Of a DNA stretch of 20,196 nucleotides, positions 1 through 18,515 are shown one piece after another. Made by a program: the position numbers and the translations under genes. This stretch comes from a candidate division WWE3 bacterium CSP1-7 (GTDB lineage Bacteria; Patescibacteriota; WWE3; 9FT-COMBO-53-11): positions 1-20,196 of the forward strand of contig LDXK01000007.1 in NCBI GenBank assembly GCA_001443395.1, written 5' to 3'. Under the pieces are notes generated by a model. The model was given only the letters and a program-made list of their open reading frames with translations, was not told the DNA's origin and did no database searches. Numbering within the stretch: the first letter of the stretch is position 1; each line of letters begins with the position of its first letter.

Positions 1-7
1 TTCGGGA

Positions 8-3000: not shown

Positions 3001-4177
3001 AAGCATCCGGGGTGTTACTTCGGCTCTTGGAATTGGCCCAGCGGGCGGGGTGAACATTGAGGGGAACATCCGCAGAGAACTTGGACTTCCCGAGTTTGAC
3101 CGCTGGGACGACTATCGAATTGACCGGATGCTGTCCAACATGGTCGCTACGGGAGAGATCACGCTTCAGCAAGAGCGGGAGGCAATGATATCCCGAGAGG
3201 GTGAAGTGTTTGACCTGGCGGAACATAGAGCGGTACAGGAAATATCTGGCGGTCCAGGTCTTCTGGGCATAGCGAGGTCCGTCTTTGGCATTCCTATTCG
3301 GGCCTATCCACCCGGAGAAGAGCACCTGCGGGAACTGCGAGACGAGTATGCACAAGCCTGGCAAGAGTATGACGGTGGCGACATGCAGGCGGTCAATCGG
3401 TTCTTCGAGTCTCACCCAGAGTACGAGGCCAGAGTAGATTTGGGATACTGGAACAAGCCCGAGGAACGGATACGCCGGTTTGCGGTTGATGAGATTTGGG
3501 ATACCTGGAACTCCCTGCCGCAGTTGCACCAGAATGAGGTATCTGAGCAACTCGGTCCCTTGTTCCAGAACGCGTTCCTGGACAGGAATACCAGAAGTTA
3601 TGAATCCATCCCGAACGAGATGCTGGTTGCTTGGACCAGGGTCATGCGGGGCGATCCGCCCGGGACCCTCTCAACGGGGCCGGGCTGGCAAATTCCCCCG
3701 CTTGATCTAGCCCCCAGGGATGTAGCCTATAGGGCAAATGCATTCTACCAATCCCGTGATGCCTACTTCCCGCAGTGGAGAGACCTCCAGAGCGACTACT
3801 ATCTCCTGGATGAGGGCTCCGCCCGGAGAGAGTATCTGAGAGTCCACCCGCCATATGCGCAGTATCGGGCATGGCGAACGGATTGGTTCATGCGCAATCC
3901 CGATGTTGTTCCCTACCTTACGGACAGGCCGGAGGACTATACCTACCCGAGCGAACAGGCGCTGCGGGAGGCGCAGGCAGGGCAACCATCGCTCCAGCCG
4001 GCAGAGTGGTATCAGGTTTTGGGCCCGAATATCTGGTCTCTCCTGGACGACAACCAAAACGGCGAGGCCCTTCCTGAGGTGGCCCGAAGGAGGCTACAAG
4101 AGATAGCCGACCAATACGGAACCACAGTTGACCACATTCTATCCGACATAGCACAAGGACTTGCACAAACCCAGTAG
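8..4177 (+). CDS. Large internal virion/ejection-type protein (>=1389 aa, probably 5'-truncated)
   Basis: Long ORF whose frame is open back to the window edge (tcg gga atg). Helical-looking R/E/D/A-rich composition, no Cys, adjacent to head genes. Function is inferred from size and position only. Confidence 0.6.
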   Translation: MGMAGLAGNEGLSAAESIIARASRGERGFWNQARDWISGIHFPGDTGAWARRIEVGASQRGYASGFHRFFRQGRRALLQNLEDFAPDVANSIRARYGDDALRAANNAIRGAGTDDDILRALASTDNMHLNLENILDSASQRFGAQIDNILDDSFTARWGPEIERAARAGPAEIDNIVDRMWGEVQDELDNRLDDSLRTLTEEATERIAAEGPGSFPGVFGDAVDEFYGSYVQGHAMTMARVGDLTDLRPEVANRMMGVLLDREQRFMARGWGRLEARFQGIANGVRRMNVPGGDEVMTSFRQWRDGWGQFFEWRNTTWREFFDARVAGRAPALSFDEIRSAVNRRYDDVVAMEAERLQNIDRLVGGMLPENMRPTFAVYRDRVAALRAERATMIREWFAQVDSIPYDQRQAAYAGFWRRMMDNTSAISVEEKIGSRAVAGNAEAAATYQDDLIAASVRSEEAVRGAPLSTAEQRQIVLDRLAQYGRPQEEADLVMGRLRQVARPPEPTAGLGVPMDAEQIAAQAGVMTDAQRSAIAAQDLTTIEQIRPILAAMPPAQRQAWLVRESESSLAIGLQEGWITARELNETRAGHRLNNVFVTRGGWIRWGFEELNGEQVPVLTFIRGRRPGGSDVLRSWMRHNDVAGHRMFLTNELLADTVNEAGETVTRGDTFFRRMVREGAVTRLRDLPPVSGEQRILFRMGGEAQEAAHLPDFHAFVPRQLYMDTGIDQMWYLRGQHAVESIRDAALDLRGRPPLRFADLGEAEQQALRRWMSQSQVQLAQARYMGMRGAEFTRDSALLNYNRRHNYNTFLGAIMPYEFWFTESALKWALHSIDRPEMLMIYLRMQRFLNTAYRPEQNLPARLRGQIRIPMPFLPNWMGDSIFVDPMRFALPLDQFTYPFEQYQQQQQRDDGATTRVLEQLLNDGQIDQAEYQEALQTRQGTTWDRAQALARQDDDEERLSAFDFMSLFSSPHVPLQWAYNAARGTPERIGTLLPLTRSIRGVTSALGIGPAGGVNIEGNIRRELGLPEFDRWDDYRIDRMLSNMVATGEITLQQEREAMISREGEVFDLAEHRAVQEISGGPGLLGIARSVFGIPIRAYPPGEEHLRELRDEYAQAWQEYDGGDMQAVNRFFESHPEYEARVDLGYWNKPEERIRRFAVDEIWDTWNSLPQLHQNEVSEQLGPLFQNAFLDRNTRSYESIPNEMLVAWTRVMRGDPPGTLSTGPGWQIPPLDLAPRDVAYRANAFYQSRDAYFPQWRDLQSDYYLLDEGSARREYLRVHPPYAQYRAWRTDWFMRNPDVVPYLTDRPEDYTYPSEQALREAQAGQPSLQPAEWYQVLGPNIWSLLDDNQNGEALPEVARRRLQEIADQYGTTVDHILSDIAQGLAQTQ

Positions 4178-4938: not shown

Positions 4939-5195
4939 TGCCGCTCGATTGGATGCACCTAGAAGGCGAGGAGAAGGCGCAAGCCATCCTCGATGATATT
5001 GAGGGCCTGGAAGACGCCGAGGTTCAGTCACTCCTAGAGGAGTGGCGCGAACTGGAGGGCTCAGACGACTCTAAGTTGTCTGACCTGACGCGCCTTGCCC
5101 TTGATTTTCTTGCACGCAAGAGTGGTGCCCCAACGAGCCGAGAGCGGGCTAGAGCCAGCCTTCAGCGCCGAGGGGTAATAGAATGGCCTCCTTGA
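4938..5195 (+). CDS. Small hypothetical protein (85 aa) between scaffold and capsid genes
   Basis: GTG start overlaps the scaffold stop (TAGTG), fills the gap and overlaps the capsid start. Acidic N-terminal half and basic C-terminal half. Confidence 0.6.
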   Translation: MPLDWMHLEGEEKAQAILDDIEGLEDAEVQSLLEEWRELEGSDDSKLSDLTRLALDFLARKSGAPTSRERARASLQRRGVIEWPP

Positions 5196-6430
5196 TCCAA
5201 ACGGTTTCCTCGACTGCGGTGGGCGGGCAAAACCTTCCCAATTCAGTCAGGACCCAGTACATTGAGAACTACATCGAAGCTGCCGAGATGGCGCGCGTCT
5301 ACGACCAGATTGCTGCGCCCATTGGCAGAGACATGAGCAACCTTGCTCGTGGTTCCTCGGTGCAGGTTAATGCCCTTTCGGACATGCAGCCTGGCACCTC
5401 GGCAATCTCCGAAGTCTCGGACATCGCCATGCAGGCACTCAGGGACGCGACCCTGAGCATCACCCCCACCAGCCGCGGCGAGGGCATTCAGTGCTCCGAG
5501 CTGCTTCTAAACCAGGCATACACCGACTACGGTGCCCAGCGGTTTGGGATCGTCGGCAAGGGGTTGATGGAAAGCCTTGAGGTTCTGGCCCGCGACGCGG
5601 CCACTCAGGGAAGTCTCGTCATCCGCCAGGGCGTTGCTGCCCGAACCTCACTTCTGGCTTCTGCAACGGGCCACCGGGCGACCGACGGCCTGTTCAGTGA
5701 CGCCTCGACGATGCTGGAAACCCTCAAGTGCCCTGGCTTCAAGGGCATGGGCGGGGGTCGGCGCTGGGTTGCGATCATGCACCCGGCCGCCTTCCATGAC
5801 ATCCGCGAGGACGGAAACGTCCAGAACGTCGGCATCTACCAAGACAAGGGGATCATCCTCAATTATGAGTTGGGGAGCATCGGTCCATTCGCTCTCGTGA
5901 GTTCAGCCTGGGCGAAGGTCTTCGGTGGAGCCGGGGCTCCTTTGACTGATCCGGGTTCAGCGGTGTTCTACACCCTGACCTCCTCGGTCAACGCCCTGGA
6001 CAAGACCTTGGTCCTGTCCACGGTAACACACCTGGACACACCCACCAACAAGTGGCTTACCATCGGCACGCGAGAGACGGGCGATACGTCCTACCCGCTG
6101 AACGATCGGGTGCGCTTTGTGTCTCATGCCGCTGGAGTAGTGACGTTTGTTGGCGAGGCCTCCAACGGCGGGTTGCGCTTTGACCATGCCGCGGCCACCT
6201 GGGTCGGGAATGCCTCAGATGTGTTCCCCATCGTCTTCGGTGGACCGATGTCGCTGGCGAAGGTCTACGAGCCTTCGGTTGGCGAGTACGGCACCATCGT
6301 TGGCCCGAAGCGCGACGGCTCACTGGACCAGTGGGTCACACTCGGCTTCAAGTGGTACGGGAACTACGGCCGGATGAGCGAGAGCTGGCTCATGCGGGCC
6401 GAGGTTGCCTCGAGCGCAAGCGTCGCGTAA
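5183..6430 (+). CDS. Major capsid protein (HK97 fold, N4-gp56-like) with probable insertion domain
   Basis: 415 aa after the scaffold. Motifs GSSVQV, AIMHPAAFHDIR, ELGSIGPF and C-terminal DGSLDQWVTLGFKWYGNYGRMSESWLMRAEVA resemble N4-gp56-family capsid proteins. Confidence 0.85.
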   Translation: MASLIQTVSSTAVGGQNLPNSVRTQYIENYIEAAEMARVYDQIAAPIGRDMSNLARGSSVQVNALSDMQPGTSAISEVSDIAMQALRDATLSITPTSRGEGIQCSELLLNQAYTDYGAQRFGIVGKGLMESLEVLARDAATQGSLVIRQGVAARTSLLASATGHRATDGLFSDASTMLETLKCPGFKGMGGGRRWVAIMHPAAFHDIREDGNVQNVGIYQDKGIILNYELGSIGPFALVSSAWAKVFGGAGAPLTDPGSAVFYTLTSSVNALDKTLVLSTVTHLDTPTNKWLTIGTRETGDTSYPLNDRVRFVSHAAGVVTFVGEASNGGLRFDHAAATWVGNASDVFPIVFGGPMSLAKVYEPSVGEYGTIVGPKRDGSLDQWVTLGFKWYGNYGRMSESWLMRAEVASSASVA

Positions 6431-6436
6431 CATAGT

Positions 6437-6521
6437 CTGGGAGGGTTCTCTTGAGGATCACATCGTGCCCGGCTTTGCAAAATGGGGTGCCCTCCCGGTA
6501 GGCTAGACTAAACCTCTAGCC
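6437..6521 (+). promoter_or_regulatory. Structured intergenic element (two stems) after the capsid gene
   Basis: CTGGGAGGGT (6437-6446) can pair with GCCCTCCCGG (6489-6498) using two G-U pairs. A perfect hairpin GGCTAGA-CTAAACC-TCTAGCC (6501-6521) lies just before the next start. Confidence 0.5.
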
Positions 6522-6533
6522 GGGGAAAAGACA

Positions 6534-6968
6534 ATGGCTGTTGGAACTAGCACGTACAAGGGTCTCGCCGTCCCCCTCAACGGGGAAGTCGAACTCAGAC
6601 AAGACACTGCGGCAACCGACTTCGTCACCCTGAGTGGCGATGCCAGCATCAGTGGGGATTACCTCGTGTGCCGCACCGGATCGACCGAGGTGTTCGTAAT
6701 CAACTCGGCCGGTGCCATCGCTGCGGGCTCAATCACTACCGGAGTAGGCGTGGCTGGACTGCGACTGGATACTCTAAAGTCGCTGAAGTTCTCCGCCCCC
6801 TACACCACGGCTCTGCCCACGACTGGGCTTGCCAAGGGTGAGATGTTCCTGGTGATCGCTTCAGGGACGCCGCAACTCGCCGTCCAAATCGCTGCTGCGA
6901 GCACGGTGAACGTGCTCAGGTACTTCACCGCCAATACGGCAACGTTCGGTCGGGCGAGCGCCTCCTAA
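6534..6968 (+). CDS. Putative capsid decoration/head fibre protein (144 aa)
   Basis: Immediately downstream of the capsid gene; T/A/S/G-rich, beta-strand-like composition. Confidence 0.55.
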   Translation: MAVGTSTYKGLAVPLNGEVELRQDTAATDFVTLSGDASISGDYLVCRTGSTEVFVINSAGAIAAGSITTGVGVAGLRLDTLKSLKFSAPYTTALPTTGLAKGEMFLVIASGTPQLAVQIAAASTVNVLRYFTANTATFGRASAS

Positions 6969-6985
6969 CAACTGAATAGCCTGAA

Positions 6986-7014
6986 GGGCGGGGGCGCTAA
7001 CCTCGCCCCCGCCC
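6986..7014 (+). terminator. Perfect 11-bp GC hairpin without U-tract (partial terminator or mRNA stability element)
   Basis: GGGCGGGGGCG-CTAACCT-CGCCCCCGCCC, abutting the GGAGG (7015-7019) of the glycosyltransferase gene. Confidence 0.5.
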
Positions 7015-7023
7015 GGAGGGATA

Positions 7024-8115
7024 ATGCGAGTTTTTGTCGGCGGAGTATCATCGGAATACGCACATGGGGGTTGCGTAGAATCGTTCCTTACCATCAGATT
7101 GAGGCCCGGAGACGAGCGCAAGTACCAGTGGCGCACGCGCGGAGACATTGCCCGTACCGAACTCTGTGACGAGTTTATGCGTCGCAAGGAGTTCGACGCC
7201 TTCTTCCTGGTGGACGTGGACATGCTGTTCGACCACGACATCCTGGAGAGGATGCGGTCACACGACCTAGATATTGTCAGCGGGCACTACTTCCGCAGGC
7301 GCTTCAACCCAATGATTTCGATTGCCGAGGTTGGGGAGTGGCCCTATGAGCCACTGTACGACATCCCCGATGACGGGCTGATTGAGGTCTCGACCAGCGG
7401 TTTCGGCTGTCTGCTTATCAAGAGGAATGTTCTGGAAGCAGTACAGAAGACGATGGATCCCAAGGAGCCAATCCTGGGAATGGGGCCCCTGCCCGAGATG
7501 ACCAATGGTGATCGAGGCCCGTTTGGAGCAGACTTCGTGTTCTCCGCAAGGGCCAGACAGTCGGGTTACAAGCACTGGGTAGACTGCAATCCCGTGGCGG
7601 AGGCCAGGCACGCAGCGACCGTGTTCTTGGATAGGAAACTGTACAAGAAGGTCCGTGGGTGGCAAGTAGAGAAAGCCGCCGACCACTGGAAGAAAATCTG
7701 GCAACTCAATCTGGAGGTTCATGGAATGGACGCAAAGACCGCCGACGCACGAGTGAAGCAACTTCAGCTAATCCGCAAAGGCTTTGCCGATAGCTTGCGG
7801 GATTTTGAGGATCAGGCGGCGAACCTGCGCACCCGCATTTCCATTGTGGATGGGCAGATTGCCGAACGAGAAATTGACATACAGACAGCGCCACCGGAAC
7901 CAAAGACGCTGACGGCAGAAGACTCTCCGAAGCCGCTACTCCTGGGCAAGTTGCCCGTGTTCAACTCAGAGAAAGAGGCGAAAGCCGCTCTGGCAAACAG
8001 GGGCAAGGGACCAGAGGGGGAGAGCGAAGAAGAGGGTCAACGTCTTCGGGAACCGGTAGCCAAGAAACTCGCACAGGATTTCTTGGGGGCGCTAAAAGAT
8101 GGCTCGGCCTCTTGA
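7024..8115 (+). CDS. GT-A fold (GT2-like) glycosyltransferase with fused C-terminal coiled-coil domain
   Basis: RGDIARTELC, FFLVDVDM (DxD), IVSGHY, SGFGCLLIKRNVLE and GADFVFSARARQSGYKHWVD match the phage GT2-like pattern. The last ~130 aa are charged and helical. Confidence 0.85.
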   Translation: MRVFVGGVSSEYAHGGCVESFLTIRLRPGDERKYQWRTRGDIARTELCDEFMRRKEFDAFFLVDVDMLFDHDILERMRSHDLDIVSGHYFRRRFNPMISIAEVGEWPYEPLYDIPDDGLIEVSTSGFGCLLIKRNVLEAVQKTMDPKEPILGMGPLPEMTNGDRGPFGADFVFSARARQSGYKHWVDCNPVAEARHAATVFLDRKLYKKVRGWQVEKAADHWKKIWQLNLEVHGMDAKTADARVKQLQLIRKGFADSLRDFEDQAANLRTRISIVDGQIAEREIDIQTAPPEPKTLTAEDSPKPLLLGKLPVFNSEKEAKAALANRGKGPEGESEEEGQRLREPVAKKLAQDFLGALKDGSAS

Positions 8116-8662
8116 GGTTATCAGGCATTGTTGCCTGGCAGGGACGAACCTTGAGCGCGCCGACCTGAGGTACATGGACCTCAGGGGAGTGAACTTTACC
8201 AATTCAAACCTGCGTGGGGCAGACCTGTCCCACGCCGACTGTCGGGGAGCGATCTTCGTGAAGGCGGACCTCTCGCGGGCGTGCCTCTACAACACGAACT
8301 GCGAGGATGCAGACTTCAGCAACGCCGACCTCACTATGTCCTACTTGCGGGCCACTAATTTCAACCACGCCACGATGTGGTGGGCATCCCTAAGAAGGGT
8401 GACGGCCAAGAGCGCCTTCTTCCTTGGGGCAGACATGACCGGCGTAGACATGGCTTACGGGTTCTTTCTGGGATCTAGGTTTGGGCCTCCTCTTTGCAAG
8501 GCCGACCAGATGCGGAATGTTGATAAGGCGGTCTTTCACTGGTACTGGGATCCACAGGGGGGCATCCCGTCCTACGATCCCAAAGAGGGATACGTTGATC
8601 TCTGGCACAGCGTCCTAGGGGGCATCTCTCTCCAAGAGAATGCATCTACGAGGCCCAAATGA
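8099..8662 (+). CDS. Pentapeptide repeat protein 1
   Basis: Tandem A(D/N)Lxx repeats (TNLER ADLRY MDLRG VNFTN SNLRG ADLSH ...) and a Trp-rich C-terminal extension. Confidence 0.9.
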   Translation: MARPLEVIRHCCLAGTNLERADLRYMDLRGVNFTNSNLRGADLSHADCRGAIFVKADLSRACLYNTNCEDADFSNADLTMSYLRATNFNHATMWWASLRRVTAKSAFFLGADMTGVDMAYGFFLGSRFGPPLCKADQMRNVDKAVFHWYWDPQGGIPSYDPKEGYVDLWHSVLGGISLQENASTRPK

Positions 8663-9096
8663 GACACCGCGCCTTTGAGTTACGATTGCAGGAACTGGAA
8701 ATGCAGCTGGAGTTCCTGGTCAAACAGGTCAATGAGGCAAGAGCCTCCGGGGCGGAGAAGACCGTCATTGCCGAGCTGATGCTGAAGTACACCGATGTCG
8801 AGGCTCGGATGGACGAGATACATCTGTGGGAAAAGGCGGAGGAAGAGAACCCGCGGTATGGAACCCAGGTCAGGGTCAACGGGATGTGGCGCCCGAAGTT
8901 GCCGGAGTTTGGATCTCTGGAGAAAGCCCTAGAAGCCATGAACTCCCCAACCGGGGGAGGACACTCGGCGGCGGCCGTGAAAGCGGCAAGAGAGTTTCGG
9001 TCCAGCGAGGACGCCAGGGAAACCGTCAGGTCCTTAGACGGTAGAAGCCCGCTCGTTCCCGAGGAAGAACGGAAGCCGTTCAACACGACGCTATGA
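8659..9096 (+). CDS. Hypothetical coiled-coil protein, apparent paralog of the glycosyltransferase C-terminal domain
   Basis: ATGA overlaps at both ends, heptad-like N-terminus, and KLPxFxS motif shared with 7726-8115. Confidence 0.7.
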   Translation: MRHRAFELRLQELEMQLEFLVKQVNEARASGAEKTVIAELMLKYTDVEARMDEIHLWEKAEEENPRYGTQVRVNGMWRPKLPEFGSLEKALEAMNSPTGGGHSAAAVKAAREFRSSEDARETVRSLDGRSPLVPEEERKPFNTTL

Positions 9097-9713
9097 CCAG
9101 TGTGGATAAGCGCCTGGAGTTGGCCTACAAGAGTTCCCTCGTCGGGGCGAACCTGGAGAGAGCCGATTTGCGTGGGTTAGATTTGCGAGGCATCAATCTG
9201 ACCAGCGCCAACCTCCGAGGGGCCGATTTGTCGCAGGCGAACTTGTCGCAGGCGACACTGATTAGGACAGATTTGTCCAGGGCCAACATCCAACGGGCGA
9301 ACTTCACCGACGCCGACATGACGGGCTGCGACCTTACGGGCTGTTACGGCAGAGGGGCGAAGTTCTACAGGACCAAATTGTGCCTGGCCTATCTGAGATA
9401 CGCCCAGTTCAAGAACGCATTCTTCATCGAGTGCGACATGACTGGGGCGGATCTGCTGAATAGCCTCTTCCTGGGAGCGAAGTTTGATGGCTCCAACACA
9501 GAGGGCGTGAAGAATGCCGACAGGGCCATCTTCCTGTGGTGGTGGTCGCCGTTGAAGACGGGGAAGATCAGCTACGATCCGCTGCCGGGATGGATACAAC
9601 TGGACGAGAGCGTTACTGGAGTCGAGAGCGTTCGAGAGAACGCCGCCCGAGAGCGTGTTGAAGACTCCGTACAGAAGGCGTGGGAGGTTATGGACGATGC
9701 CTCGAAAGCGTAA
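9093..9713 (+). CDS. Pentapeptide repeat protein 2 (paralog of 8099-8662)
   Basis: ANLER ADLRG LDLRG INLTS ANLRG ADLSQ ANLSQ repeats and the same C-terminal motif (FxWxWxP...SYDP..G...SV.G...ENA). Confidence 0.9.
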   Translation: MTSVDKRLELAYKSSLVGANLERADLRGLDLRGINLTSANLRGADLSQANLSQATLIRTDLSRANIQRANFTDADMTGCDLTGCYGRGAKFYRTKLCLAYLRYAQFKNAFFIECDMTGADLLNSLFLGAKFDGSNTEGVKNADRAIFLWWWSPLKTGKISYDPLPGWIQLDESVTGVESVRENAARERVEDSVQKAWEVMDDASKA

Positions 9714-10026
9714 GGATCAGCCCGTTCCGTTGGAAGAACTGCGGTTCTCGGGGGATGCCAACCTCATCCTTGCCAGGCTCAAGGCAGAGTTGGCCGAGAG
9801 GGATAGGTATATCAACGTCCTGGAGAACGAGAACCTGGGCCTGGAGAAGTGTGCCAACAGGGTTTGGACTGCCCTGGAGGAGGCGGAGGCAATGGCAAAC
9901 CGCTTCCCGCAGTTTGTTCAGGATGCCCTGAATGACCCGAAAAAGCACGCCTCCAGACTGGCCGAGGCGGCTCGCTACGGCAGGATCTTCCGGGAAGCCA
10001 AGGACGACTTCCAGAGACTCAGATGA
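9697..10026 (+). CDS. Hypothetical coiled-coil protein (109 aa)
   Basis: Start at ATG 9697 (MPRKRK) with GGGAGG upstream, ATGA overlap with the neuA-like gene, and heptad-like LKAELAERDRYINVLENENLGLEK. Confidence 0.65.
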   Translation: MPRKRKDQPVPLEELRFSGDANLILARLKAELAERDRYINVLENENLGLEKCANRVWTALEEAEAMANRFPQFVQDALNDPKKHASRLAEAARYGRIFREAKDDFQRLR

Positions 10027-10736
10027 ACCGCCAGCAGAGGGTCCTCGGGGTCACGGCCGCCAGGGGAGGAAGCAAGGGCGTTCCCCGGAAGAATATCCGC
10101 CAGATCAATGGCATTCCCCTGATTGCCTACACCATCCGAGAAGCCAAGAAGAGCCATCTCATCAGTAGATACATTGTGTCTACAGATGATGACGAGATAG
10201 CTGAGGTTTCCCGCCACTACGGGGCCGGGGTTCTGATGCGGCCGTCGGAACTGGCCGAAGACCATACCCCAATGATTGCCGTGATGCAGCACGCCCTGAA
10301 GCGGTGCGAGGAGGAAGAGGGGGAGTGGTATGACATCGTGGCCGACCTAAGATGCACCAATCCTCTCAAGACGGCCTATGACATCGACGGGGCAATAGAG
10401 AAACTGATCCACACTGGGGCAGACGGGGTTATCGGGGTGACAAAGCTGGACGATCACCACCCGGCACGGATCAAGCGGGTCTTCGAGGATAGATTGATTG
10501 ACTTTGCCTGGCCCGAGCCGCCGGCGGGATTGCGACAGGAACTCAAACCAGATGCCTTCATCCGCAACGGCAGCTTGTATGTGGTGCTCAGGGATGCACT
10601 TCTAGACGGCATTCTTCTTCAGGGTAGCGATAATCTTAGGCCTTGGTACATGCCGCTGGAGAAGAGCGTGAACATCGACTCCGAGTTGGATTTTGTTCTG
10701 GTGGAGGCGCTCCTTGGACGCAACCGCAAGATTTGA
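10023..10736 (+). CDS. neuA: Acylneuraminate cytidylyltransferase (CMP-nonulosonate synthetase family)
   Basis: ARGGSKGVPRKNI, PLIAYTI, IVSTDDDEIA, RPSELAED, NGSLY and SVNIDSELDF motifs of CTP_transf_3 enzymes. Confidence 0.92.
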   Translation: MNRQQRVLGVTAARGGSKGVPRKNIRQINGIPLIAYTIREAKKSHLISRYIVSTDDDEIAEVSRHYGAGVLMRPSELAEDHTPMIAVMQHALKRCEEEEGEWYDIVADLRCTNPLKTAYDIDGAIEKLIHTGADGVIGVTKLDDHHPARIKRVFEDRLIDFAWPEPPAGLRQELKPDAFIRNGSLYVVLRDALLDGILLQGSDNLRPWYMPLEKSVNIDSELDFVLVEALLGRNRKI

Positions 10737-11433
10737 AGTCGGGGGTAAGGAGTTCAACTTTACGGCCCCCACGCCCCTCCAGTTCAGGACACTGCACAAG
10801 ATAGTGGATGCCTACTATTCAACCGATTATGTCAGGCAGCGTCTAGGAAACATTCGGCATATCGTTGATGTGGGCGCCTGCATAGGAACAATGTCTCTTG
10901 TTTACGAGGCTATATGGCCAGGGGTGGAAATACTTGCCATAGAACCACACCCAGACAACTTCAGGTATCTCGTGGAGAACTGTAGGGCGTTCAAGAACAT
11001 TCACCCCGTGAACATTGCCGTCAGCGACAAAGAGGAGAGAATACGCCTCGCCTTCCCAACCCCGGAACAGCGGCCGGACATAAAACGCCTTTATCTATTC
11101 GCCAACGTAGGAATGGTTTCTCGCTACGGACTCTCAGACGCATTTGTGGCGGAGGTGGACGCCGTACCGCTAGACAGTATTGTTGGATGGAATGTAGATT
11201 TCCTGAAAGTCGACGTAGAGGGGTCAGAAATGCAGGTCTTGCGCGGGGCCGAAGGGGTGCTCTCTGGAAATCCCCTCGTGACGGTGGAGTTGCGCCCCGA
11301 CAATCTGGCCATGGCGGGCCTGACCTGCGAAGACGTTGACGAACATCTACAGGGCATGGGATATGAGGCGGTGGCAAAGTTTATGGGAGACCCGTTGTAT
11401 CAACGCCGGAACTGGCGGCCATGGTTTTCATAG
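10714..11433 (+). CDS. FkbM-family SAM-dependent methyltransferase
   Basis: IVDVGACIG, AIEPHPDNF, AVSD, LDSI and DFLKVDVEGSEMQVLRGA. Probable TTG start at 10714 with GGAGG at 10703-10707. Confidence 0.88.
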   Translation: MDATARFEVGGKEFNFTAPTPLQFRTLHKIVDAYYSTDYVRQRLGNIRHIVDVGACIGTMSLVYEAIWPGVEILAIEPHPDNFRYLVENCRAFKNIHPVNIAVSDKEERIRLAFPTPEQRPDIKRLYLFANVGMVSRYGLSDAFVAEVDAVPLDSIVGWNVDFLKVDVEGSEMQVLRGAEGVLSGNPLVTVELRPDNLAMAGLTCEDVDEHLQGMGYEAVAKFMGDPLYQRRNWRPWFS

Positions 11434-12083
11434 CCGAACTCGGCAGTATGCATAAAGGCATTGAGGCGCTGGCCTATGAGATGGTGCGCAGGGCAAAGAT
11501 GTCTGGCGCAGATGCCGTGAAGTTCCAGTTCGGCTGGGGTCCCGATGCGGGGGACGCCCGCAGGTGGGCCGAGGCGAACGCCAAACTGATACGTGGCTGG
11601 TGTGACTACTTTGACATCCAGTTCGGGGCGTCGGTGTTCTCCTGGGGCGGGTTGGCCACGGCGGAATCTTGCGGCGTAGACTACCTGAAGATGGCGCATC
11701 CGGAGACATTTGCCAGGAATGCGCCTTTTGAGAACTACGAGAAGATATTGCATCTGTGTCTGCAAAGCGGCAAGCCGCTGTACGTTTCCGGGAGCAGTGC
11801 CCCTGGGGCGGTCTCTCTTTATTGTGTTCCGAAGTATCCCGTTTACCAGGAGGAACTACAACTGCCGATGCGCTTCTCTAGCCTGTGGTGGGGCGGCTAC
11901 TCATCGCACACTCATGGAATTGAGGATGCGCTGGTGGCCATTGGCAGGGGAGCGACGGTTATCGAGAAGCACGTAACCCTGGACAAGACCGAGGAGAGCA
12001 TCAAAGACAACCAGTTCGCGCTCTCATTTGAGGAGTTTGCCGAGATGGTCCATATCGGAAGGGCTATGTCGAGGCTGACATAA
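11421..12083 (+). CDS. neuB: NeuB/SpsE-family nonulosonic acid synthase, short form lacking the C-terminal antifreeze-like (SAF) domain
   Basis: FIAELGSMHKG, GADAVKFQ, YCVPKYP, GYSSHTHG, GATVIEKHVTLDK and DNQFAL motifs; only 220 aa. Confidence 0.85.
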   Translation: MVFIAELGSMHKGIEALAYEMVRRAKMSGADAVKFQFGWGPDAGDARRWAEANAKLIRGWCDYFDIQFGASVFSWGGLATAESCGVDYLKMAHPETFARNAPFENYEKILHLCLQSGKPLYVSGSSAPGAVSLYCVPKYPVYQEELQLPMRFSSLWWGGYSSHTHGIEDALVAIGRGATVIEKHVTLDKTEESIKDNQFALSFEEFAEMVHIGRAMSRLT

Positions 12084-13012
12084 TGTTGGCACACTGGAGC
12101 GCCCCCTACAGACCTCACTGGAAGATGTGGTCCTGGCCGTGCGAGACCTCGTTCTGGGAGGTCTATGAGGCGAAAGACCTGGAGGGGCTGCCGCCGATTG
12201 GCATTCTCTACGCCAACCCGAATGCGCACTACGTCCTGGACATGGCCGCCCTGGAGATGCTGCCCGACCTCAAGATGGTTGTGACGCCGTCTACGGGGAA
12301 CACGCACATTGATATGCTGGCCCTTAGGGAGGCCGGCGTTGAACTGCGGTCTCTGCTGGATGACCGTCCCGCCCTGGAGGAAATCAGGGCCAGTTCGGAG
12401 TTCACGTTCCTTCTCATTATGAATGCCCTGCGACGGCTGGATAAGATGCTGTTATCGGGGGAGTGGAAGCGGGACGAGGAAAGCCTGCGGGGGCACGAGC
12501 TATACGAGGCGATGATCGGGCTGGTGGGTCATGGGAGGATCGGCAAGAACGTCGAGAGATGGTGCCGAGAGTTCGGGGCGGGGGTGTACTGGTACGATCC
12601 CTACGACGACGCCAGGGATAACATCTACCAGTGCAGCATACCGTGGCAGTTCTCAAACTGTCATGTTGTGGTTCTGTGCTGTTCCCTGACGGCCGAGACA
12701 AGGGGCTCGATTACGGGCCAGATGGTCTACCGAATGCGGCCGAATGCGACCCTCATCAATACGGCTCGGGGCGAGCTTCTAGCAGACGATGTTTGCGACG
12801 CCCTCAGGAAGCGCCAGGATGTGACGGCCTGGTTTGACGTACTGCCGGGAGAGGCAAGCGGTGGACCGGAGCAGGCTTACCTGGAACTGCCAAATGTCCA
12901 CGTGACCCCGCACATTGCGGGTACGACATTCGAGAGCCAGGAGAAGGCGGCTAGAATTGCAATGCAATTGGCGGGGAGGTGGCTGAGTGCCTACAGCAAA
13001 AGTCCAGCCTAA
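12083..13012 (+). CDS. D-isomer-specific 2-hydroxyacid dehydrogenase (phosphoglycerate dehydrogenase-like)
   Basis: STGNTHID, Rossmann motif IGLVGHGRIG, YDPY, LINTARG, FDVLPGE and VTPHIAG (catalytic Arg/Glu/His pattern). TAATG overlap with the neuB-like gene. Confidence 0.9.
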   Translation: MLAHWSAPYRPHWKMWSWPCETSFWEVYEAKDLEGLPPIGILYANPNAHYVLDMAALEMLPDLKMVVTPSTGNTHIDMLALREAGVELRSLLDDRPALEEIRASSEFTFLLIMNALRRLDKMLLSGEWKRDEESLRGHELYEAMIGLVGHGRIGKNVERWCREFGAGVYWYDPYDDARDNIYQCSIPWQFSNCHVVVLCCSLTAETRGSITGQMVYRMRPNATLINTARGELLADDVCDALRKRQDVTAWFDVLPGEASGGPEQAYLELPNVHVTPHIAGTTFESQEKAARIAMQLAGRWLSAYSKSPA

Positions 13013-13265
13013 GATGTACGAGTTCGTGAAGGCGAGCAAGAAGGACTTCAACGCCATCGAGGTAGACGGGAAAGTCCTCAAGATGGGCAAGAAGACAGCC
13101 GCCTTCACGACGCACGATCCAACACTTGCAAATGAAATCAATGCCCGTTATGGGTGGCAGAGGGGCGCCACTGGCGACCTGATTATGAATACCGTAGACA
13201 CCCACCTTCGCCGGGTGAAGTTGTTCGTGATGCCGGAGCTTCCCTGGAAGCGAAAGAAGGAATAA
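12987..13265 (+). CDS. Hypothetical basic protein (92 aa)
   Basis: GTG start with GGAGG at 12975-12979; stop abuts the next ATG. Confidence 0.6.
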   Translation: MPTAKVQPKMYEFVKASKKDFNAIEVDGKVLKMGKKTAAFTTHDPTLANEINARYGWQRGATGDLIMNTVDTHLRRVKLFVMPELPWKRKKE

Positions 13266-14147
13266 ATGGCATTCGTTCTGAGCAACCTATTGCAGCAAGC
13301 ATTTACCAGATTGGGTCAGGCCAACATCTCCACTGCCACCGGGGGTTCTACCAGCACCGTTGTGGACAGCAAGCAGGGCGGGTTACACGGGGATAATGCC
13401 TGGAAGGATGGGGCCTGCCTCATTGTGAGAGATGCCGCCGGGGCATCCGCCGCTCCGGAGACCGAGATTGCGTTGGTCACCTCCTATACCGACTCGTCCG
13501 GCACATTTACGTCCGCGGCGTCGGCCTACACGGCGGCTCCGGCATCGGGCGATACGTTTATGTTCGTCAATGACTTCTACCCCCTGTTCACCATGATGGA
13601 GTTGGCGAACTCTGTATTACAGGCCCTGGGTCCTATCCCGCTCATAGACAGTTCGATCACCACGGCCGCCGCCCAGACAGAATACACCCTTCCGGTTACT
13701 GCGAAGAGGATGGCCCCACTTCGGGTGGAGTACAACACCAAGGTCGGTGACGCCAACGACAACCAGTATGTGCCGATTGATAACTACCGCATCGTTCCTG
13801 CGACTGCTGGAACAGCTGGAGTGATTGTCCTTCCACAACTGCCAACTAGCAGGACGGTTCGCATCTGGTACATGGGCGTCCATCCCACCCTGACTGCATA
13901 CAGCAGCGCGGTGGCAGAGGTCATTGATCCCGAGCTGGCAACGGCCCTGCTTGTCGAGAAGGCGCTGGAGTGGCAGAACTCCCGTCTTCAGGGGGGAGAC
14001 GACTTCCTGCTTCAGAGGTGGAACGACCAGAAGCAGCAGGTAGTTGAGGCCAGGGCGAACTTCCCCATCTGGAAGCCGAAGAGACGCCCCAGATTACTTG
14101 TGGTGGATGACTACATCGCAGAAGATGAGTTCACGCACCCAACATGA
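13266..14147 (+). CDS. Putative head-tail adaptor (tail tubular protein A-like)
   Basis: Short N-terminal helix (LSNLLQQAFTRLG), TTAAAQTEYTLP, VVLPQLP-like/VRIWY strand region and C-terminal helices, directly before a ~800-aa nozzle-sized gene. Confidence 0.6.
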   Translation: MAFVLSNLLQQAFTRLGQANISTATGGSTSTVVDSKQGGLHGDNAWKDGACLIVRDAAGASAAPETEIALVTSYTDSSGTFTSAASAYTAAPASGDTFMFVNDFYPLFTMMELANSVLQALGPIPLIDSSITTAAAQTEYTLPVTAKRMAPLRVEYNTKVGDANDNQYVPIDNYRIVPATAGTAGVIVLPQLPTSRTVRIWYMGVHPTLTAYSSAVAEVIDPELATALLVEKALEWQNSRLQGGDDFLLQRWNDQKQQVVEARANFPIWKPKRRPRLLVVDDYIAEDEFTHPT

Positions 14148-16522
14148 CAAAAGTAAACGTCGGCCCAAAGATCAAGAACCCGACCCACGACTTAGCCCTA
14201 GAGGGAGATAACTACCTATGGGGGCTGAAGTTAGATGGTGGCGTGCGGGGGATGCAGGAGATATCCCAGTCCCCCTCTACGATGCTGATTGGCAGCGGCG
14301 GGAAGAGGTTCGGCACTGGCGATCCGACGTTCACCGAGATTGAGCAGTCTTCGTGGCATGGCGGGAGAGGCTCAGAGTTCTTCTCCGATGATGAGACTAG
14401 ATACCTAGACGCCTGGCAGGCGATGACCCGCATTCCGGGTAGGCTTCTACCACAGTTGCGCTGGGACTTTGCGGCTTCCGCTCTGCTGACGACGAGGATT
14501 ACGGACACCATTCCCTTCGCCTCGCATTCGTGGAAGCAACTCAGGGGCGCAACCAGATACATTGATGTGAAGTTCACGTCGCTTGGCTTTACGGCGGACA
14601 AGTGCTACATCTGGCTGCGCCGCAGAGGAAGTCCCGGAACTCTGACGCTGGAACTCTGCGCCAACCTGGGAGACGACACTCCGGCGCTAACCGCAAATGC
14701 CCTCAAGTCCATAACTGTCACAACTTCGACAATTACCGATACTCTATCCAGGTTCTATGCCTTTGACTGGACAACCACACAGGCGCTAACTGCCTCGACC
14801 GCCTATCACATCAAGGTCTTCGGGGCCTCCACGGACAATGCCGCCAACCATTGGGAAGTGGCGGTGGACGAGAGCGGCTCTGCCTCCCTCACCGCCACAA
14901 CTGACGGGACCTGGACCGCCGCCTCCTTCAGCATGTACTTCCGCGTAGTTCCAGCAGATGCGGCTTTCAAGGGGCACTTCTTCACCATCAGCGGAACGTT
15001 CCACGTCATTACAGAGAAGGACTCTGGAGACAGCACCCTATTCGAGTGGGACGAGACGAACGATTTGTGGGTTGCCGTTACCTTGGATGCCGGAGATGCC
15101 CTAAGCGGAACGGTGAAGTCGGTGGCCACCAGCAAGAACATCGCCCACTGTGCCAGGGGAACGACGGGCGGGTCTGAGACCATCTGGACATTCACCAACG
15201 TTTCTGGTACTGCCACTGGGCAGGACGACGCCACCGGTGCCAACAAGGCCGACTTGGTTCTAGCCTACAACGACCCCGTAGATGGCCCCCAGATAGCCAG
15301 ATTTGAGAATGACAACTGGTACTGGTCACGGTCGGACGTGAAGGCGCTCAACACCGACCTTGTATTCGGGACAGACGTGGAGTTCCCGCAGGGCTTCAAT
15401 GCACTTGCGATGGCGTTCTACAACGACCAGGTGTGGGTCAGGACCACGGATGGCATTCACTCGGTGAAGAACGACCGCCCATCCCGCCTCGATGTTGGGC
15501 TGGAAGCTGTCCTAGAACCATCGACCTCGGCGGGCGCGCTGCTTGCCAAGGACCTTTTCCTCTATCTGGCATGGTCGTTCTCGATTGAGCGATTGTATGG
15601 CGGGACGCTGGACGACATAGGCCCCTGGAAGGGCGCCGGTCTACCAGATGGAAGGCAGGGAGTTGTCTCCTGTTTCTGCTCTGGCATCGGCGGTATCTAC
15701 GTGGGAATAGACGGCGGCTCTGGGAATACATCGTCGGTATTCTTCACCACAAACGGCAGGGACTACGAGGAGGTGTTCCGTGCGTGGGAGGCTGGACAGA
15801 GAGTTCGCAACATCGCCTACCAGCCGCAGAATGGGACGACCAACCCCGCAAGACTGTGGATCAGCGTCGGCAGCGATCTGGTATTCATTGCCTTACCCGA
15901 CCAGTCCATGAACCCGCTGCACGACTCCGACAGCCGGTTCGTCCACGAGTATTCCATCACATCCCCGACGCACGACTTCGGGGCATCCCATCTGCCTAAG
16001 TTCTTCAGGGCAGTTGAGCTGTCGGCGGACAACCTGGGGGCCGAGTGTGATGTGGGAGTGGATTACCAAATAGACAAGGACGTGGGCACATCCACCTGGG
16101 TAGAACAAACCACCCTATACCAATCACCTCACGACGTGGCCGACCTGAACATGGGCAACCGCAAGAAACTGCGCTACCGCCTTCGGGCAAACACTTCCAA
16201 TGCGGCTACCCCGCCCGCCGTGAATGCGGTGGTGGTCACCGGCTTCGCCAGAACGAAACTCAAGCGGCAGTGGAACCTGCGGGTAAAGGCCGCCGACCTT
16301 CAAAGAACACGGACGGGCGGCAAAGACCACTCGTGGTCCAGCTTCTATGCCTTCATCCAGGAGGGGGCAAAGCAGGCGGACGACTTTGTGCTGCGCTCTC
16401 CAGAGGTAGAACTGGACGGGCTGCATGTTGTGATAGATGCGCCCACCGTTATGCGGAAGTTTGTGAACACGATCCAGAAGTGGGTTGGGGGTTCCTTTGC
16501 TCTCACCCTGCGCGAGGCGTAG
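14144..16522 (+). CDS. Putative tail nozzle / head-closure protein (792 aa)
   Basis: Beta-rich, W/Y/T-rich. N-terminal QSSWHGGRG and C-terminal ITSPTHDFGASHLPKFFRAVEL...KKLRYRL resemble podovirus nozzle/stabilisation proteins; follows the adaptor. Confidence 0.65.
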   Translation: MTKVNVGPKIKNPTHDLALEGDNYLWGLKLDGGVRGMQEISQSPSTMLIGSGGKRFGTGDPTFTEIEQSSWHGGRGSEFFSDDETRYLDAWQAMTRIPGRLLPQLRWDFAASALLTTRITDTIPFASHSWKQLRGATRYIDVKFTSLGFTADKCYIWLRRRGSPGTLTLELCANLGDDTPALTANALKSITVTTSTITDTLSRFYAFDWTTTQALTASTAYHIKVFGASTDNAANHWEVAVDESGSASLTATTDGTWTAASFSMYFRVVPADAAFKGHFFTISGTFHVITEKDSGDSTLFEWDETNDLWVAVTLDAGDALSGTVKSVATSKNIAHCARGTTGGSETIWTFTNVSGTATGQDDATGANKADLVLAYNDPVDGPQIARFENDNWYWSRSDVKALNTDLVFGTDVEFPQGFNALAMAFYNDQVWVRTTDGIHSVKNDRPSRLDVGLEAVLEPSTSAGALLAKDLFLYLAWSFSIERLYGGTLDDIGPWKGAGLPDGRQGVVSCFCSGIGGIYVGIDGGSGNTSSVFFTTNGRDYEEVFRAWEAGQRVRNIAYQPQNGTTNPARLWISVGSDLVFIALPDQSMNPLHDSDSRFVHEYSITSPTHDFGASHLPKFFRAVELSADNLGAECDVGVDYQIDKDVGTSTWVEQTTLYQSPHDVADLNMGNRKKLRYRLRANTSNAATPPAVNAVVVTGFARTKLKRQWNLRVKAADLQRTRTGGKDHSWSSFYAFIQEGAKQADDFVLRSPEVELDGLHVVIDAPTVMRKFVNTIQKWVGGSFALTLREA

Positions 16523-16953
16523 TGAAACCCTTCCGCTATAAACTGCGCCCTCGTCCCCCGAAGATGCCGCTGAACAGGATAGCGGGGGCGAGTGAGACAG
16601 AGAGACTGACTGGCTTTGTGCATGGGAAAGAGGCGTCTGATCTGGAGGAGAGGTTTGCTCGGGCGCTGGATAGGGCGGGTAAGGATTACCGATTTGAGTA
16701 TCTAGTTCTATCCAACGTAGGACTTCCGGGCGAGGAGAACCAGATTGACTTTGTGGTAGAGGATATCTACCCGGTGGAGATTGACGGCAACTTCACGCAC
16801 AAGTCGGCAGAGCAGAAAGCGCATGACCAACAGAGAGATGCCATCCTGAATGAGCAACTATCTGACTGGGGGTGGTATCCGATTGACCGCATTCCGGGGG
16901 ACTTTCTGGAGACGCAGGAAGCCGCCAACCAGATAGTCGGGGAGAAATTCTAG
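16522..16953 (+). CDS. DUF559/Vsr-like PD-(D/E)XK endonuclease-family protein
   Basis: SDLEERFARAL, IDFVV, VEIDGNFTH and DQQRDAILNEQLSDWGW..RI. GTG start at 16522 overlaps the nozzle stop (TAGTG). Confidence 0.75.
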   Translation: MKPFRYKLRPRPPKMPLNRIAGASETERLTGFVHGKEASDLEERFARALDRAGKDYRFEYLVLSNVGLPGEENQIDFVVEDIYPVEIDGNFTHKSAEQKAHDQQRDAILNEQLSDWGWYPIDRIPGDFLETQEAANQIVGEKF

Positions 16954-17794: not shown

Positions 17795-18515
17795 CTCTGA
17801 ACTCCAGGATTTGACCGCAGATACCGCACCGGCATCCGGCGATGTTGTCTACGTCGTTGTTGACCCGGCCGGCACACCTCTGGCCCGGAAGATGACGGTC
17901 GACAATCTACTGAAGGCTATCAACATCCTGTCGGCGGATACGACACCAGGTACGGCCGACCTTGTGGTGACGATTGATGACCCGTCCGGAACTCCGGTAG
18001 CCAAGAAAGCCACCATCGCCAACCTGATGAAGGCGTGGTTCCTGGACTCGGAGGGGAACCCGGCAGACGTCGTAACCCTGACAGCGGCTGATGGAACAAG
18101 CATCTATGCGGCACGCAGGGACCACGTTCATGCGGCAGCATTGATCCGCCATGTTTGCATCGAGGTTGTGGACAAGGACACTGCATTGACCACAGGGGAT
18201 GGCAAGAAGGCATTCCATATTCCGCCTGACATAACGGGCTACAACCTAGTCTATGTCCATATGTTTTGTCTGACGGCCAGCAGCAATGGCATTCCCACTA
18301 TTCAGGTGCGAAACCAGACAGACACCCAAGACATGCTGAGCACGAAGTTGACCATCGACCAGGGCGAGACGGACTCGAAGGATGCTACTGCGGCCGCCGT
18401 CATTGACACCACAAAGGACGACGTGGTGACGAATGACATCATCGCCCTGGACTGCGATGTGGCGGGTACGGGCACAAAGGGCCTGTATGTAACGCTGGGG
18501 TTCCAGAAGCCATGA
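17787..18515 (+). CDS. Tail fibre-like protein with two 39-aa repeats
   Basis: LTADTAPASGDVVYVVVDPAGTPLARKMTVDNLLKA and LSADTTPGTADLVVTIDDPSGTPVAKKATIANLMKA, then ARRDHVH (fibre HxH motif) and a C-terminal beta domain ending GTKGLYVTL. Confidence 0.7.
   Translation: MADSELQDLTADTAPASGDVVYVVVDPAGTPLARKMTVDNLLKAINILSADTTPGTADLVVTIDDPSGTPVAKKATIANLMKAWFLDSEGNPADVVTLTAADGTSIYAARRDHVHAAALIRHVCIEVVDKDTALTTGDGKKAFHIPPDITGYNLVYVHMFCLTASSNGIPTIQVRNQTDTQDMLSTKLTIDQGETDSKDATAAAVIDTTKDDVVTNDIIALDCDVAGTGTKGLYVTLGFQKP

Follow-up and report, generated by a model that had tools for sequence, protein, structure and literature searches.

Background

Enzymes of the NeuB type form a 3-deoxy-2-ulosonic acid by condensation of phosphoenolpyruvate (PEP) and an aldose, enzymes of the CTP_transf_3 family make a CMP-sugar, and 2-hydroxyacid dehydrogenases interconvert α-hydroxy and α-keto acids with NAD(P). 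Here we describe a phage cassette in which these three kinds of enzyme are encoded together, downstream of a capsid gene. It occupies positions 7024-13265 of a 20,196-nt stretch of DNA (positions 1 to 20,196 of contig LDXK01000007.1, assembly GCA_001443395.1, deposited as candidate division WWE3 bacterium CSP1-7), which is called the window below and in which all long open reading frames (ORFs) lie on the + strand. The three enzymes are a short NeuB-like synthase (NeuBs), a NeuA/PseF-like CMP-ulosonic-acid synthetase (CMPs) and a member of the D-isomer-specific 2-hydroxyacid dehydrogenase family (HADH); the cassette is headed by a GT-A-fold glycosyltransferase of 363 aa (GT363). Judged by gene linkage, NeuBs, CMPs and HADH are one unit common to the phage and many bacteria.

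Several parts of this picture are already known, namely phage glycosyltransferases, virion glycosylation, and the presence of neuB and neuA in viromes. Capsid and tail-tube subunits of mycobacteriophages carry glycans (PMC12619734, citing Freeman 2023), and a table in a virome survey counts 126 neuB hits in 8 viromes and 11 neuA hits in 5 (PMC3877843). NeuB homologues without the SAF domain were found to make up 40 of 425 KEGG NeuB sequences, all from environmental organisms (PMC8208679, excerpt). According to the SugarBase preprint of 2026, Magnetospirillum has CMP-activated C10 ulosonic acids that had not been described before, and in Kuenenia neuB stands beside genes for a deacetylase and a formyltransferase. 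Is there any described pathway that holds the trio as such? A literature search found no published pathway of CMPs, HADH and NeuB and no fusion of CTP_transf_3 with HADH; a paper on E. coli K15 and one on the Vibrionaceae nab genes proved irrelevant to the trio.

Results

A short NeuB-family synthase that ends after the barrel

NeuBs (11421-12083, + strand; 220 aa) is predicted to be a SAF-less, PEP-condensing synthase of the NeuB family. It matches PF03102 at E = 1.7e-20 with its C-terminal part alone aligned, and its phmmer match to the 290-aa chain of 6ncs is full-length. The AF2 model (pLDDT 94.8) is a complete TIM barrel, for which Foldseek returned 6ncs, 8h2c (C. jejuni PseI) and 1xuu (N. 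meningitidis NeuB) with TMq of 0.78-0.83; matches to KDO8P/DAHP synthases, at about 1e-6, are five to seven orders of magnitude weaker. Across 26 sequences of the short family 28 columns are invariant, among them E6, K34, Q36, K90, S161, H163, E182, H184 and D196. In the alignments, E6, K34 and Q36 correspond to residues 25, 53 and 55 of 1xuu, and the HxH...EKH motif falls on the metal-site motif of PseI (8h2c). These conserved residues we take to be the metal-binding His pair and the catalytic Glu, Lys and Gln. A first-pass annotation of the same DNA, made from the letters alone, had called this gene NeuB-like. The family assignment stands, by PF03102 and by the fold matches to NeuB and PseI; the protein is not a full-size NeuB, since it has 220 aa and no SAF domain.

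The short form is a family of its own. In a collection of 5.8 billion proteins, the 51 best matches to NeuBs are 142-240 aa long and carry PF03102 alone, with SAF (PF08666) absent from all 51; past a jump in E-value the proteins are mostly at least 300 aa long, and most of these longer matches have SAF. A profile built from 26 short NeuB sequences found 200 representatives at E <= 1e-30 among 1.84 billion, and about 126 of the 150 listed are 270 aa or shorter. A scan of GTDB genomes for NeuBs gave 80 loci, 56 of them with short forms of 205-250 aa, and the carriers of short forms include SAR86, Pelagibacter, Magnetococcales, Magnetospirillum, Myxococcota and Planctomycetota.

To place the phage protein in this family, a NeuB tree of 139 rows was inferred by a quick method, with SH-aLRT as its sole measure of support. 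All 105 short sequences fall together in a single clade (support 100, on a stem of length 1.53), which divides into two. One subclade of 49 rows (support 98) holds the window, 47 sequences from metagenome and genome protein collections, and a 2.4-kb contig of a metagenome-assembled genome (locus L002); in the other, of 56 rows (support 84), 55 rows are bacterial genome loci. We claim the 49-row, phage-side subclade as viral on the strength of contigs of up to 50 kb and of its separation on the tree, not of annotation. As to the placement of NeuA and NeuB that had been proposed as a check, CMPs lies nearer NeuA/PseF than KdsB, and NeuBs falls in a distinct short clade outside the Neu and Pse equivalogs.

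The partner enzymes

CMPs (10023-10736, + strand; 237 aa) matches CTP_transf_3 (PF02348) with 81.7 bits against a cutoff of 22.6, and its best relatives in the PDB are CMP-Neu5Ac synthetases (6ifd, 2.7e-29; 1eyr, 7e-23), so the earlier name NeuA-like is well founded. With the PseF equivalog TIGR03584 it scores 121.2 bits, under the cutoff of 205.7; with KdsB models it reaches 46 bits at most, which places it nearer NeuA/PseF than KdsB, and the NeuA/PseF match is full-length.

Between CMPs and NeuBs lies the gene of a FkbM-family SAM methyltransferase (10693-11433, + strand; 246 aa, with an uncertain TTG start), whose family, already recognized in the first reading, is confirmed by PF05050 (62.7 bits, cutoff 22.7, E = 6.3e-17), TIGR01444 (80.2 bits, cutoff 37.7) and phrog_8156 (E = 1e-23).

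HADH (12083-13012, + strand; 309 aa) likewise belongs where it had been put: PF02826 is matched with 118 bits (cutoff 25.1, E = 3.8e-34). Over 26 homologues the GxGxxG motif (G149, G151, G154) and R229, E257 and H277 are invariant, presumably as the NAD-binding motif and the catalytic Arg, Glu and His. The score with the catalytic-domain family PF00389 is below cutoff (16.1 bits, cutoff 24.6); the N-terminal substrate domain is divergent, and the first 60 or so residues are family-specific. A complex prediction of NeuBs with HADH, each entered as an alignment, scored 0.00, which speaks neither for nor against binding.

Synthase, cytidylyltransferase and dehydrogenase form one unit in phage and bacteria

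Do these enzymes belong to one pathway? To this end the neighbourhoods of short NeuB genes were counted at 57 loci (L002-L058), within 5 kb of the gene; one of these, L057, has a 327-aa form and no partners, and many of the loci are short contigs, so that the partner counts are lower bounds. A small GT2 glycosyltransferase is present at 44 of the 57 loci, a CMPs homologue at 37 and a HADH homologue at 22. CMPs and HADH occur together at 19, and 18 of the 57 have CMPs, HADH and GT2; a FkbM homologue occurs at 2, and homologues of GT363 and of the pentapeptide-repeat proteins of the cassette at none.

When 91 ORFs of 10 loci were scanned with Pfam, the partners often proved to be fused. In 6 of the 10, CTP_transf_3 and HADH are joined in a single protein of 575-704 aa (L009 7198-9312, L012 6702-8462, L020 7564-9291, L025 7584-9317, L036 7441-9234 and L046 15730-17484). 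The genes of these fusions were also seen to adjoin a small GT2 and a short NeuB. In 4 of the 10, GT2 is fused to CTP_transf_3 (L011 8206-9939, L012 8569-9999, L019 8542-9978 and L053 6696-8396). This is a second kind of fusion, which ties a GT-A enzyme to the pathway. The genes of this second kind, from Lujinxingia, Omnitrophota, Chloroflexota and Planctomycetia loci, immediately precede the short NeuB. All 10 scanned loci are in polysaccharide regions, with ABC transporters, UDP-sugar dehydrogenases (Ugd), epimerases, DegT aminotransferases, other transferases and further genes. Two of the loci have a formyltransferase and a polysaccharide deacetylase after the short NeuB (L016 10659-12338, Vibrio sinus; L046 10686-12283, Pelagibacter), and a PEP mutase and TPP-enzyme pair (phosphonate genes) lies nearby in L046.

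The phage proteins fit this pattern. CMPs is closest to the HADH-fused type, with 43-55% identity, and HADH is closest to the stand-alone type that follows the short NeuB in bacterial loci, with 39-43%. Six metagenomic NeuBs and six HADH homologues have equal longest-contig sizes (27292, 7133, 10655, 3222, 41992 and 23187), which indicates that the pairs lie on the same contigs and that the pair is kept in the phage-side subclade. In L002 the order CMPs-NeuBs-HADH is that of the window, without FkbM. Together the fusions and the conserved neighbourhood indicate that NeuBs, CMPs and HADH are one pathway unit, and the same linkage makes a CMP-activated ulosonic acid a reasonable inference for its product.

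Might the unit make no glycan at all? NeuBs and HADH could make a small 2-keto-3-deoxy or 2-hydroxy acid as a metabolite, with CMPs activating something else. The missing SAF would leave NeuBs a substrate pocket unlike that of known synthases, and reduction of the α-keto acid by HADH would, from general chemistry, destroy the anomeric centre that CMP activation needs. However, CMPs matches NeuA/PseF over its full length, the genomic partners are GT2 and polysaccharide export genes, and there are fusions of the cytidylyltransferase with HADH or with GT2. We therefore consider a pathway outside glycan synthesis very unlikely.

A ten-ORF coupled chain within the structural genes of a phage

The ten ORFs of the cassette form a chain coupled in translation. 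Between 8099 and 14147, neighbouring ORFs overlap or stand no more than 1 nt apart at every junction, and an ORF of 83 aa (13014-13265, + strand), the stop of which abuts the ATG at 13266, carries the chain free of gaps into the 293-aa gene that follows; the apparent gap of 253 nt after 13012 is thus coding. The overlapping chain reported in the first reading is real and its five named genes are there, but five further ORFs had been overlooked and the chain ends at 13265, not at 13012. That reading also recognized no separate promoter, and this holds: promoter-like sites are at chance (5 found, 3.1 +/- 1.7 expected), as are terminator-like sites (7 found, 8.1 +/- 2.5 expected). One signal stands out. 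A G+C-rich hairpin at 6986-7014 (+ strand; stem of 11 bp, loop of 7 nt, no U tract) folds at -31.9 kcal/mol with z = -3.77, a value that none of 200 shuffles equals, and separates the preceding 144-aa gene from the GGAGGG ribosome-binding site and ATG of GT363. It may attenuate read-through from the head genes into the cassette.

The chain is set among structural genes. The major capsid protein (5183-6430, + strand) matches phrog_1357, major head protein, at E = 4.7e-22 and scores 54.2 bits with TIGR04387 (N4-gp56 family), under the cutoff of 60. By tblastn it has 48% identity to the annotated major capsid protein of MW202608.1, a circular podovirus-like genome of 41.8 kb, and the figure of 48% holds in 5 of 6 tblastn matches, all of the same length. 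The gene order in MW202608.1 is a large protein, a scaffold-like protein, capsid, decoration protein, a 164-aa gene, a 299-aa gene and an 882-aa gene. On the far side of the cassette, the 293-aa and 792-aa proteins (13266-16522, + strand) are homologues of the 299-aa and 882-aa post-head genes there, with 40% and 35% identity to L001 16631-17272 and 18591-19979, respectively (tblastn). The slot of the cassette is filled in MW202608.1 by the single 164-aa gene, and none of the cassette proteins has a match in that genome, so that the cassette is an insertion relative to the nearest sequenced relative.

Is it then a recent insertion, or a fault of the assembly? Relative synonymous codon usage correlates at 0.88 between cassette and flanks, compared with 0.82 between the left and right flank, and the G+C content is even over the region. 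Both ends are coupled to the neighbouring genes, and clusters of 51, 58 and 29 member sequences hold proteins 96-99% identical to NeuBs, GT363 and HADH, respectively. On these grounds we regard the cassette as true DNA of the phage, set in a late, structural context, and as neither a recent nor an artefactual insertion. A fragment of a host lipopolysaccharide (LPS) or capsule locus joined by misassembly into a phage contig would account for the bacterial homologues of the enzymes and for the lack of the cassette in the closest sequenced relative. But such a fragment would hardly be coupled gap-free to phage genes at both ends, match the codon usage of its flanks, begin with a phage-type GT-A gene such as GT363, and carry a NeuBs that falls in the 49-row subclade (SH-aLRT 98) apart from the 56-row one made up mostly of genome loci. 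This explanation is scarcely credible.

How common is the cassette among known phages? The survey suggested earlier, for the same cassette beside capsid genes, came out negative. Against 50,697 phage records, blastn of 5183-13012 and tblastn of NeuBs gave no match, and tblastn of CMPs gave two, one to a bacterial Moritella contig and one, with 29% coverage, in a 462-kb uncultured phage. The combination of NeuBs, CMPs and HADH is essentially absent from the deposited phage collection, and what recurs beside the capsid gene is the GT-A homologue, in two phages.

GT363 and its place behind the capsid gene

GT363 (7024-8115, + strand) matches phrog_1574 at E = 8.7e-9. In the AF2 model (pLDDT 78.4) residues 1 to about 205 form a GT-A domain, behind which come a long helix (211-287), a disordered segment and further helices at the C-terminus; residues 1-150 mostly have pLDDT of 85-97, and D64 and D66 of the DxD motif are invariant in the alignment of homologues. 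The gene had been described as GT2-like. The model bears out a GT-A fold with a DxD motif, but membership of GT2 is not supported: no Pfam family, PF00535 included, is matched at E <= 0.01, and no PDB sequence at E <= 10. By structure, Foldseek gave 117 PDB matches at E <= 0.001, and those listed are nearly all glycosyltransferases, led by STIV A197 (2.5e-8) and then LH3/ColGalT1, mimivirus R699, TarP and SpsA; protein glycosyltransferases are thus among the nearest solved folds. Among the viral models of BFVD there are many GT-A proteins of uncultured Caudovirales (best E = 8e-14), and a search of the ESM Atlas led to the same viral clusters, of 214-234-aa proteins, some with Anp1 or GT2 domains. 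One BFVD model, A0A6J5M7M7, is a 788-aa 'FkbM methyltransferase' of an uncultured Caudovirales phage with a GT-A domain structurally like GT363 (E = 1.3e-12). This protein hints that GT-A enzymes of the GT363 type and FkbM act together in phages.

In the phage records, tblastn of GT363 had two matches, MW202711.1 and MW202496.1, where a glycosyltransferase of about 210 aa shows 28-30% identity to the query. The gene order in both is scaffold, capsid, a 100-aa gene, the glycosyltransferase and the first tail gene. Because these related GT-A genes sit right after the capsid in two other podophages, glycosylation of the virion by the cassette is plausible; it is only the position of the genes that points to attachment there.

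Do GT363 and the sugar enzymes work together? The cassette could combine two unrelated insertions, in which GT363, perhaps with FkbM, acts on the virion with NDP-sugars of the host, and CMPs, NeuBs and HADH form a separate unit with a target of its own. GT-A homologues do follow the capsid in phages without sugar genes, four unrelated ORFs lie between GT363 and the sugar enzymes, a similar GT-A domain is contained in the 788-aa FkbM protein of BFVD, and L002 has the trio without FkbM. Moreover, none of 11 GT363 homologues, one of which sits on a 47-kb contig, shares its longest-contig size with any of the NeuBs or HADH homologues listed, so that the glycosyltransferase and the sugar unit may be independent. 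However, no neighbour accompanies the short NeuB more constantly than a GT2, also a GT-A enzyme, which is found at 44 of 57 loci and is sometimes fused to CMPs; this makes a GT-A enzyme with the three others a recurring combination in bacteria. In the window all ten ORFs are coupled, and FkbM lies between CMPs and NeuBs. Two unrelated insertions thus seem unlikely, and a single system remains our preferred reading.

Other genes of the chain and of the window

Two pentapeptide-repeat proteins are encoded between GT363 and CMPs, one of 187 aa (8099-8662, + strand; PF00805, E = 5.6e-38) and one of 206 aa (9093-9713, + strand; PF00805, E = 3.4e-36; phrog_7713, E = 1.9e-25). They are paralogues, 44% identical. 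Both have a Trp-rich C-terminal region in common, and each is followed by a small ORF. The first of these small ORFs, of 145 aa (8659-9096, + strand), overlaps its neighbours by 4 nt on both sides and matches no family; the second, of 109-123 aa (from a GTG at 9655 or an ATG at 9697 to 10026, + strand), has no significant family match and overlaps the cytidylyltransferase gene by 4 nt. No kinship of the 145-aa and 123-aa ORFs was detected. PHROG matches of the pentapeptide-repeat pair are all of unknown function. The pair might serve as a DNA mimic, be ejected, or belong to a fibre. A PADLOC scan of seven unexplained proteins of the window gave no match, for this pair as for the others, and the 83-aa ORF at the end of the chain had no match in Pfam or PADLOC.

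The 144-aa protein before the cassette (6534-6968, + strand) takes the slot of the annotated 'head decoration protein' of MW202608.1. It has no match in Pfam, PHROG, NCBIfam or PADLOC, and BLASTP against the decoration protein of MW202608.1 gave E = 0.095 only, so its family identity is unsupported. Profile scans gave no family match for the 293-aa and 792-aa proteins either; the labels decoration, adaptor and nozzle thus have no family support for these three proteins. Upstream, a 1389-aa ORF, open at the 5' edge of the window (2-4177, + strand), has no family match; over its C-terminal 660 residues it shares 42% identity with a section of a hypothetical protein of 2156 aa, encoded 5' of scaffold and capsid in MW202608.1. 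Two small genes lie between this ORF and the capsid gene. Downstream, the ORF at 16270-16953 as listed shares 253 nt with the end of the 792-aa gene, and translation of it probably starts further downstream; over residues 93-227 it has 42% identity to a gene of MW202608.1. A 264-aa protein (18512-19306), probably a tail-fibre-like component, has a glycine-rich domain (PF21722, E = 1e-20) and aligns with the central part of phrog_2295, a profile of 1183 positions (E = 2.3e-43). A tRNA scan of the window found none.

Discussion

What might the cassette do? The gene identities and intact motifs are shown here, as are the bacterial gene linkage and fusions and the setting among phage genes; from them we infer a scheme, including its chemistry, the order of its steps, late expression and the acceptor. 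The cassette would have resided for long in a podovirus-like phage and would be read through from the head-gene transcript. NeuBs would condense PEP with an aldose supplied by the host to a 3-deoxy-2-ulosonic acid; HADH would carry out an NAD(P)-dependent redox step on the α-hydroxy or α-keto-acid end of the precursor or the product; CMPs would activate the sugar as a CMP-sugar; and FkbM would O-methylate the ulosonic acid or a glycan built by the GT-A enzyme. For the substrate of FkbM, the modelled 788-aa protein with both domains may point to the glycan of the GT-A enzyme as much as to the ulosonic acid. GT363 would most likely glycosylate a protein made at the same time, that is, the capsid, decoration or another virion protein. 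We put the probability at roughly 40% that the cassette is one late-expressed glycosylation system of this kind, with a virion protein as its most likely acceptor.

The ulosonic-acid product claimed in the first-pass annotation is reasonable as to its CMP-activated type, by the linkage and fusions, but a recognizable Neu, Leg, Pse or Kdo pathway is not there. NeuBs scores 75.5 with the NeuB_NnaB equivalog TIGR03569 (cutoff 399.65) and 69.4 with the PseI equivalog TIGR03586 (cutoff 340.25), and it ends after the barrel at residue 220, without SAF. None of the precursor enzymes (NeuC; PseB/C/H/G; LegB/C/H/G) is found among the 22 ORFs of the window. To our knowledge, none of the ulosonic-acid pathways described so far uses a 2-hydroxyacid dehydrogenase. 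Because the equivalog cutoffs are missed, SAF and precursor enzymes are absent and HADH is foreign to those pathways, the product, as far as sequence can tell, is probably a CMP-activated, sialic-acid-like ulosonic acid that is none of Neu5Ac, Leg, Pse and Kdo.

These same four features also weigh against the proposed system, and they do not stand alone. DxD enzymes of the GT-A fold bind the diphosphate of NDP-sugars, and CMP-sugar transferases are of other types, none of which was recognizable in the window by profile scans. The window is 20 kb of a genome of maybe about 40 kb, and a transferase or the enzymes for the precursor might be encoded elsewhere in that genome. On the side of GT363, the sugar genes are not with the GT-A homologue in MW202711.1 and MW202496.1, the longest-contig sizes set the two apart as described above, and neither hhalign (probability 0.6%) nor tblastn showed kinship of GT363 to the small GT2 of bacteria. 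In N. meningitidis NeuB the SAF domain aids substrate binding (PMC8208679, excerpt), and NeuBs would have to do without it. Finally, a Ser/Ala-rich C-terminal tail of the capsid protein was considered as a glycosylation signal and dropped, since a similar tail is present in MW202608.1, which has no cassette.

Could the target be the host instead of the particle? The CMP-sugar might be passed to host transferases, or the GT-A enzyme might act on a host glycan, so that LPS, capsule or flagellar glycans are changed; superinfection could be blocked in this way, or progeny kept off debris. That all module homologues in the bacterial loci examined lie among cell-surface polysaccharide genes favours such a target and counts against the virion, as does the lack of a recognizable CMP-sugar transferase in the cassette. 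In cyanophage S-SCSM2R, adjacent kdsA and kdsB were read by the authors as cell-wall modification (PMC12801897, excerpt). However, the present cassette is inside a structural operon, coupled to virion genes and with promoters not above chance; the related GT-A genes keep the slot beside the capsid in two other phages; and a late change of the surface would have little time to take effect in a lytic phage. Remodelling of the host surface is therefore a doubtful explanation, if a serious one. The strictest form of the virion reading, in which NeuBs, CMPs and HADH make an undescribed CMP-ulosonic acid both here and in the bacterial loci, and this phage attaches the sugar, once methylated by its own enzyme, to its capsid, we regard as rather improbable. 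If true, this would be the first tailed phage known to make its own sialic-acid-like virion coat.

Why would the system matter? If the proposal is right, the module would stand for a new and uncharacterised branch of ulosonic-acid biosynthesis with a wide distribution among environmental bacteria, and the cytidylyltransferase-dehydrogenase fusions offer a handle for its biochemistry. The phage would be a compact test case for the decoration of particles with acidic sugars by tailed phages beyond the mycobacteriophages, with a bearing on adsorption, stability, and recognition by hosts and grazers.

Comparison with known systems

How does the locus compare with the systems described so far? The Neu, Pse and Leg pathways (NeuB/NeuA, PseI/PseF and LegI/LegF) share with it a NeuB-family TIM barrel beside a CTP_transf_3 enzyme. 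They differ in the synthase, which has about 335-350 aa with SAF in those pathways, compared with 220 aa without SAF in the phage; the short-NeuB module of phage and bacteria also has a HADH partner that looks obligatory, and no precursor enzymes accompany it in the window.

We know of no sugar-synthesis module in the mycobacteriophages that glycosylate their virions. The likeness to them is in phage-encoded glycosyltransferases for which decoration of capsid and tail proteins is assumed or demonstrated (PMC12619734, PMC11256854), and gp87 of Mycobacterium phage Ardmore is a weak fold-level match to GT363 (BFVD rank 48, E = 7e-5). They differ in that neither of the two phage-record tblastn matches of GT363 is a mycobacteriophage, and in that the cassette is known from its genes alone. 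STIV A197, LH3, ColGalT1 and mimivirus R699 have the GT-A fold and DxD motif of the N-terminal domain of GT363, but STIV A197 and the collagen-type enzymes are only 13-17% identical to it and have no counterpart of its helical, partly disordered C-terminal extension of about 160 aa, which is likewise absent from the 210-aa phage homologues.

The cyanomyovirus S-SCSM2R also has adjacent genes for an ulosonic-acid synthase and a CMP-synthetase (PMC12801897, excerpt). Those are of the Kdo type (kdsA/kdsB), in a genome of more than 200 kb with many cell-wall genes around, whereas the pair in the window is of the NeuB/NeuA type and stands with HADH and FkbM in the structural operon of a small podovirus-like genome. 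The environmental SAF-less NeuBs of PMC8208679 resemble NeuBs in having the NeuB domain only; that paper reports neither a function nor the gene context for them and does not use the words 'virus' or 'phage', and here CMPs, HADH and GT2 are added as partners. The arrangement in Kuenenia (SugarBase preprint, excerpt) resembles loci L016 and L046 and gives no link to a dehydrogenase. Compared with all of these, three things are new: an architecture in which a SAF-less NeuB has a cytidylyltransferase of its own and a 2-hydroxyacid dehydrogenase as partners; the conservation and fusions of this module across bacterial phyla; and its presence, together with FkbM and a capsid-adjacent GT-A enzyme, in the structural operon of a small phage.

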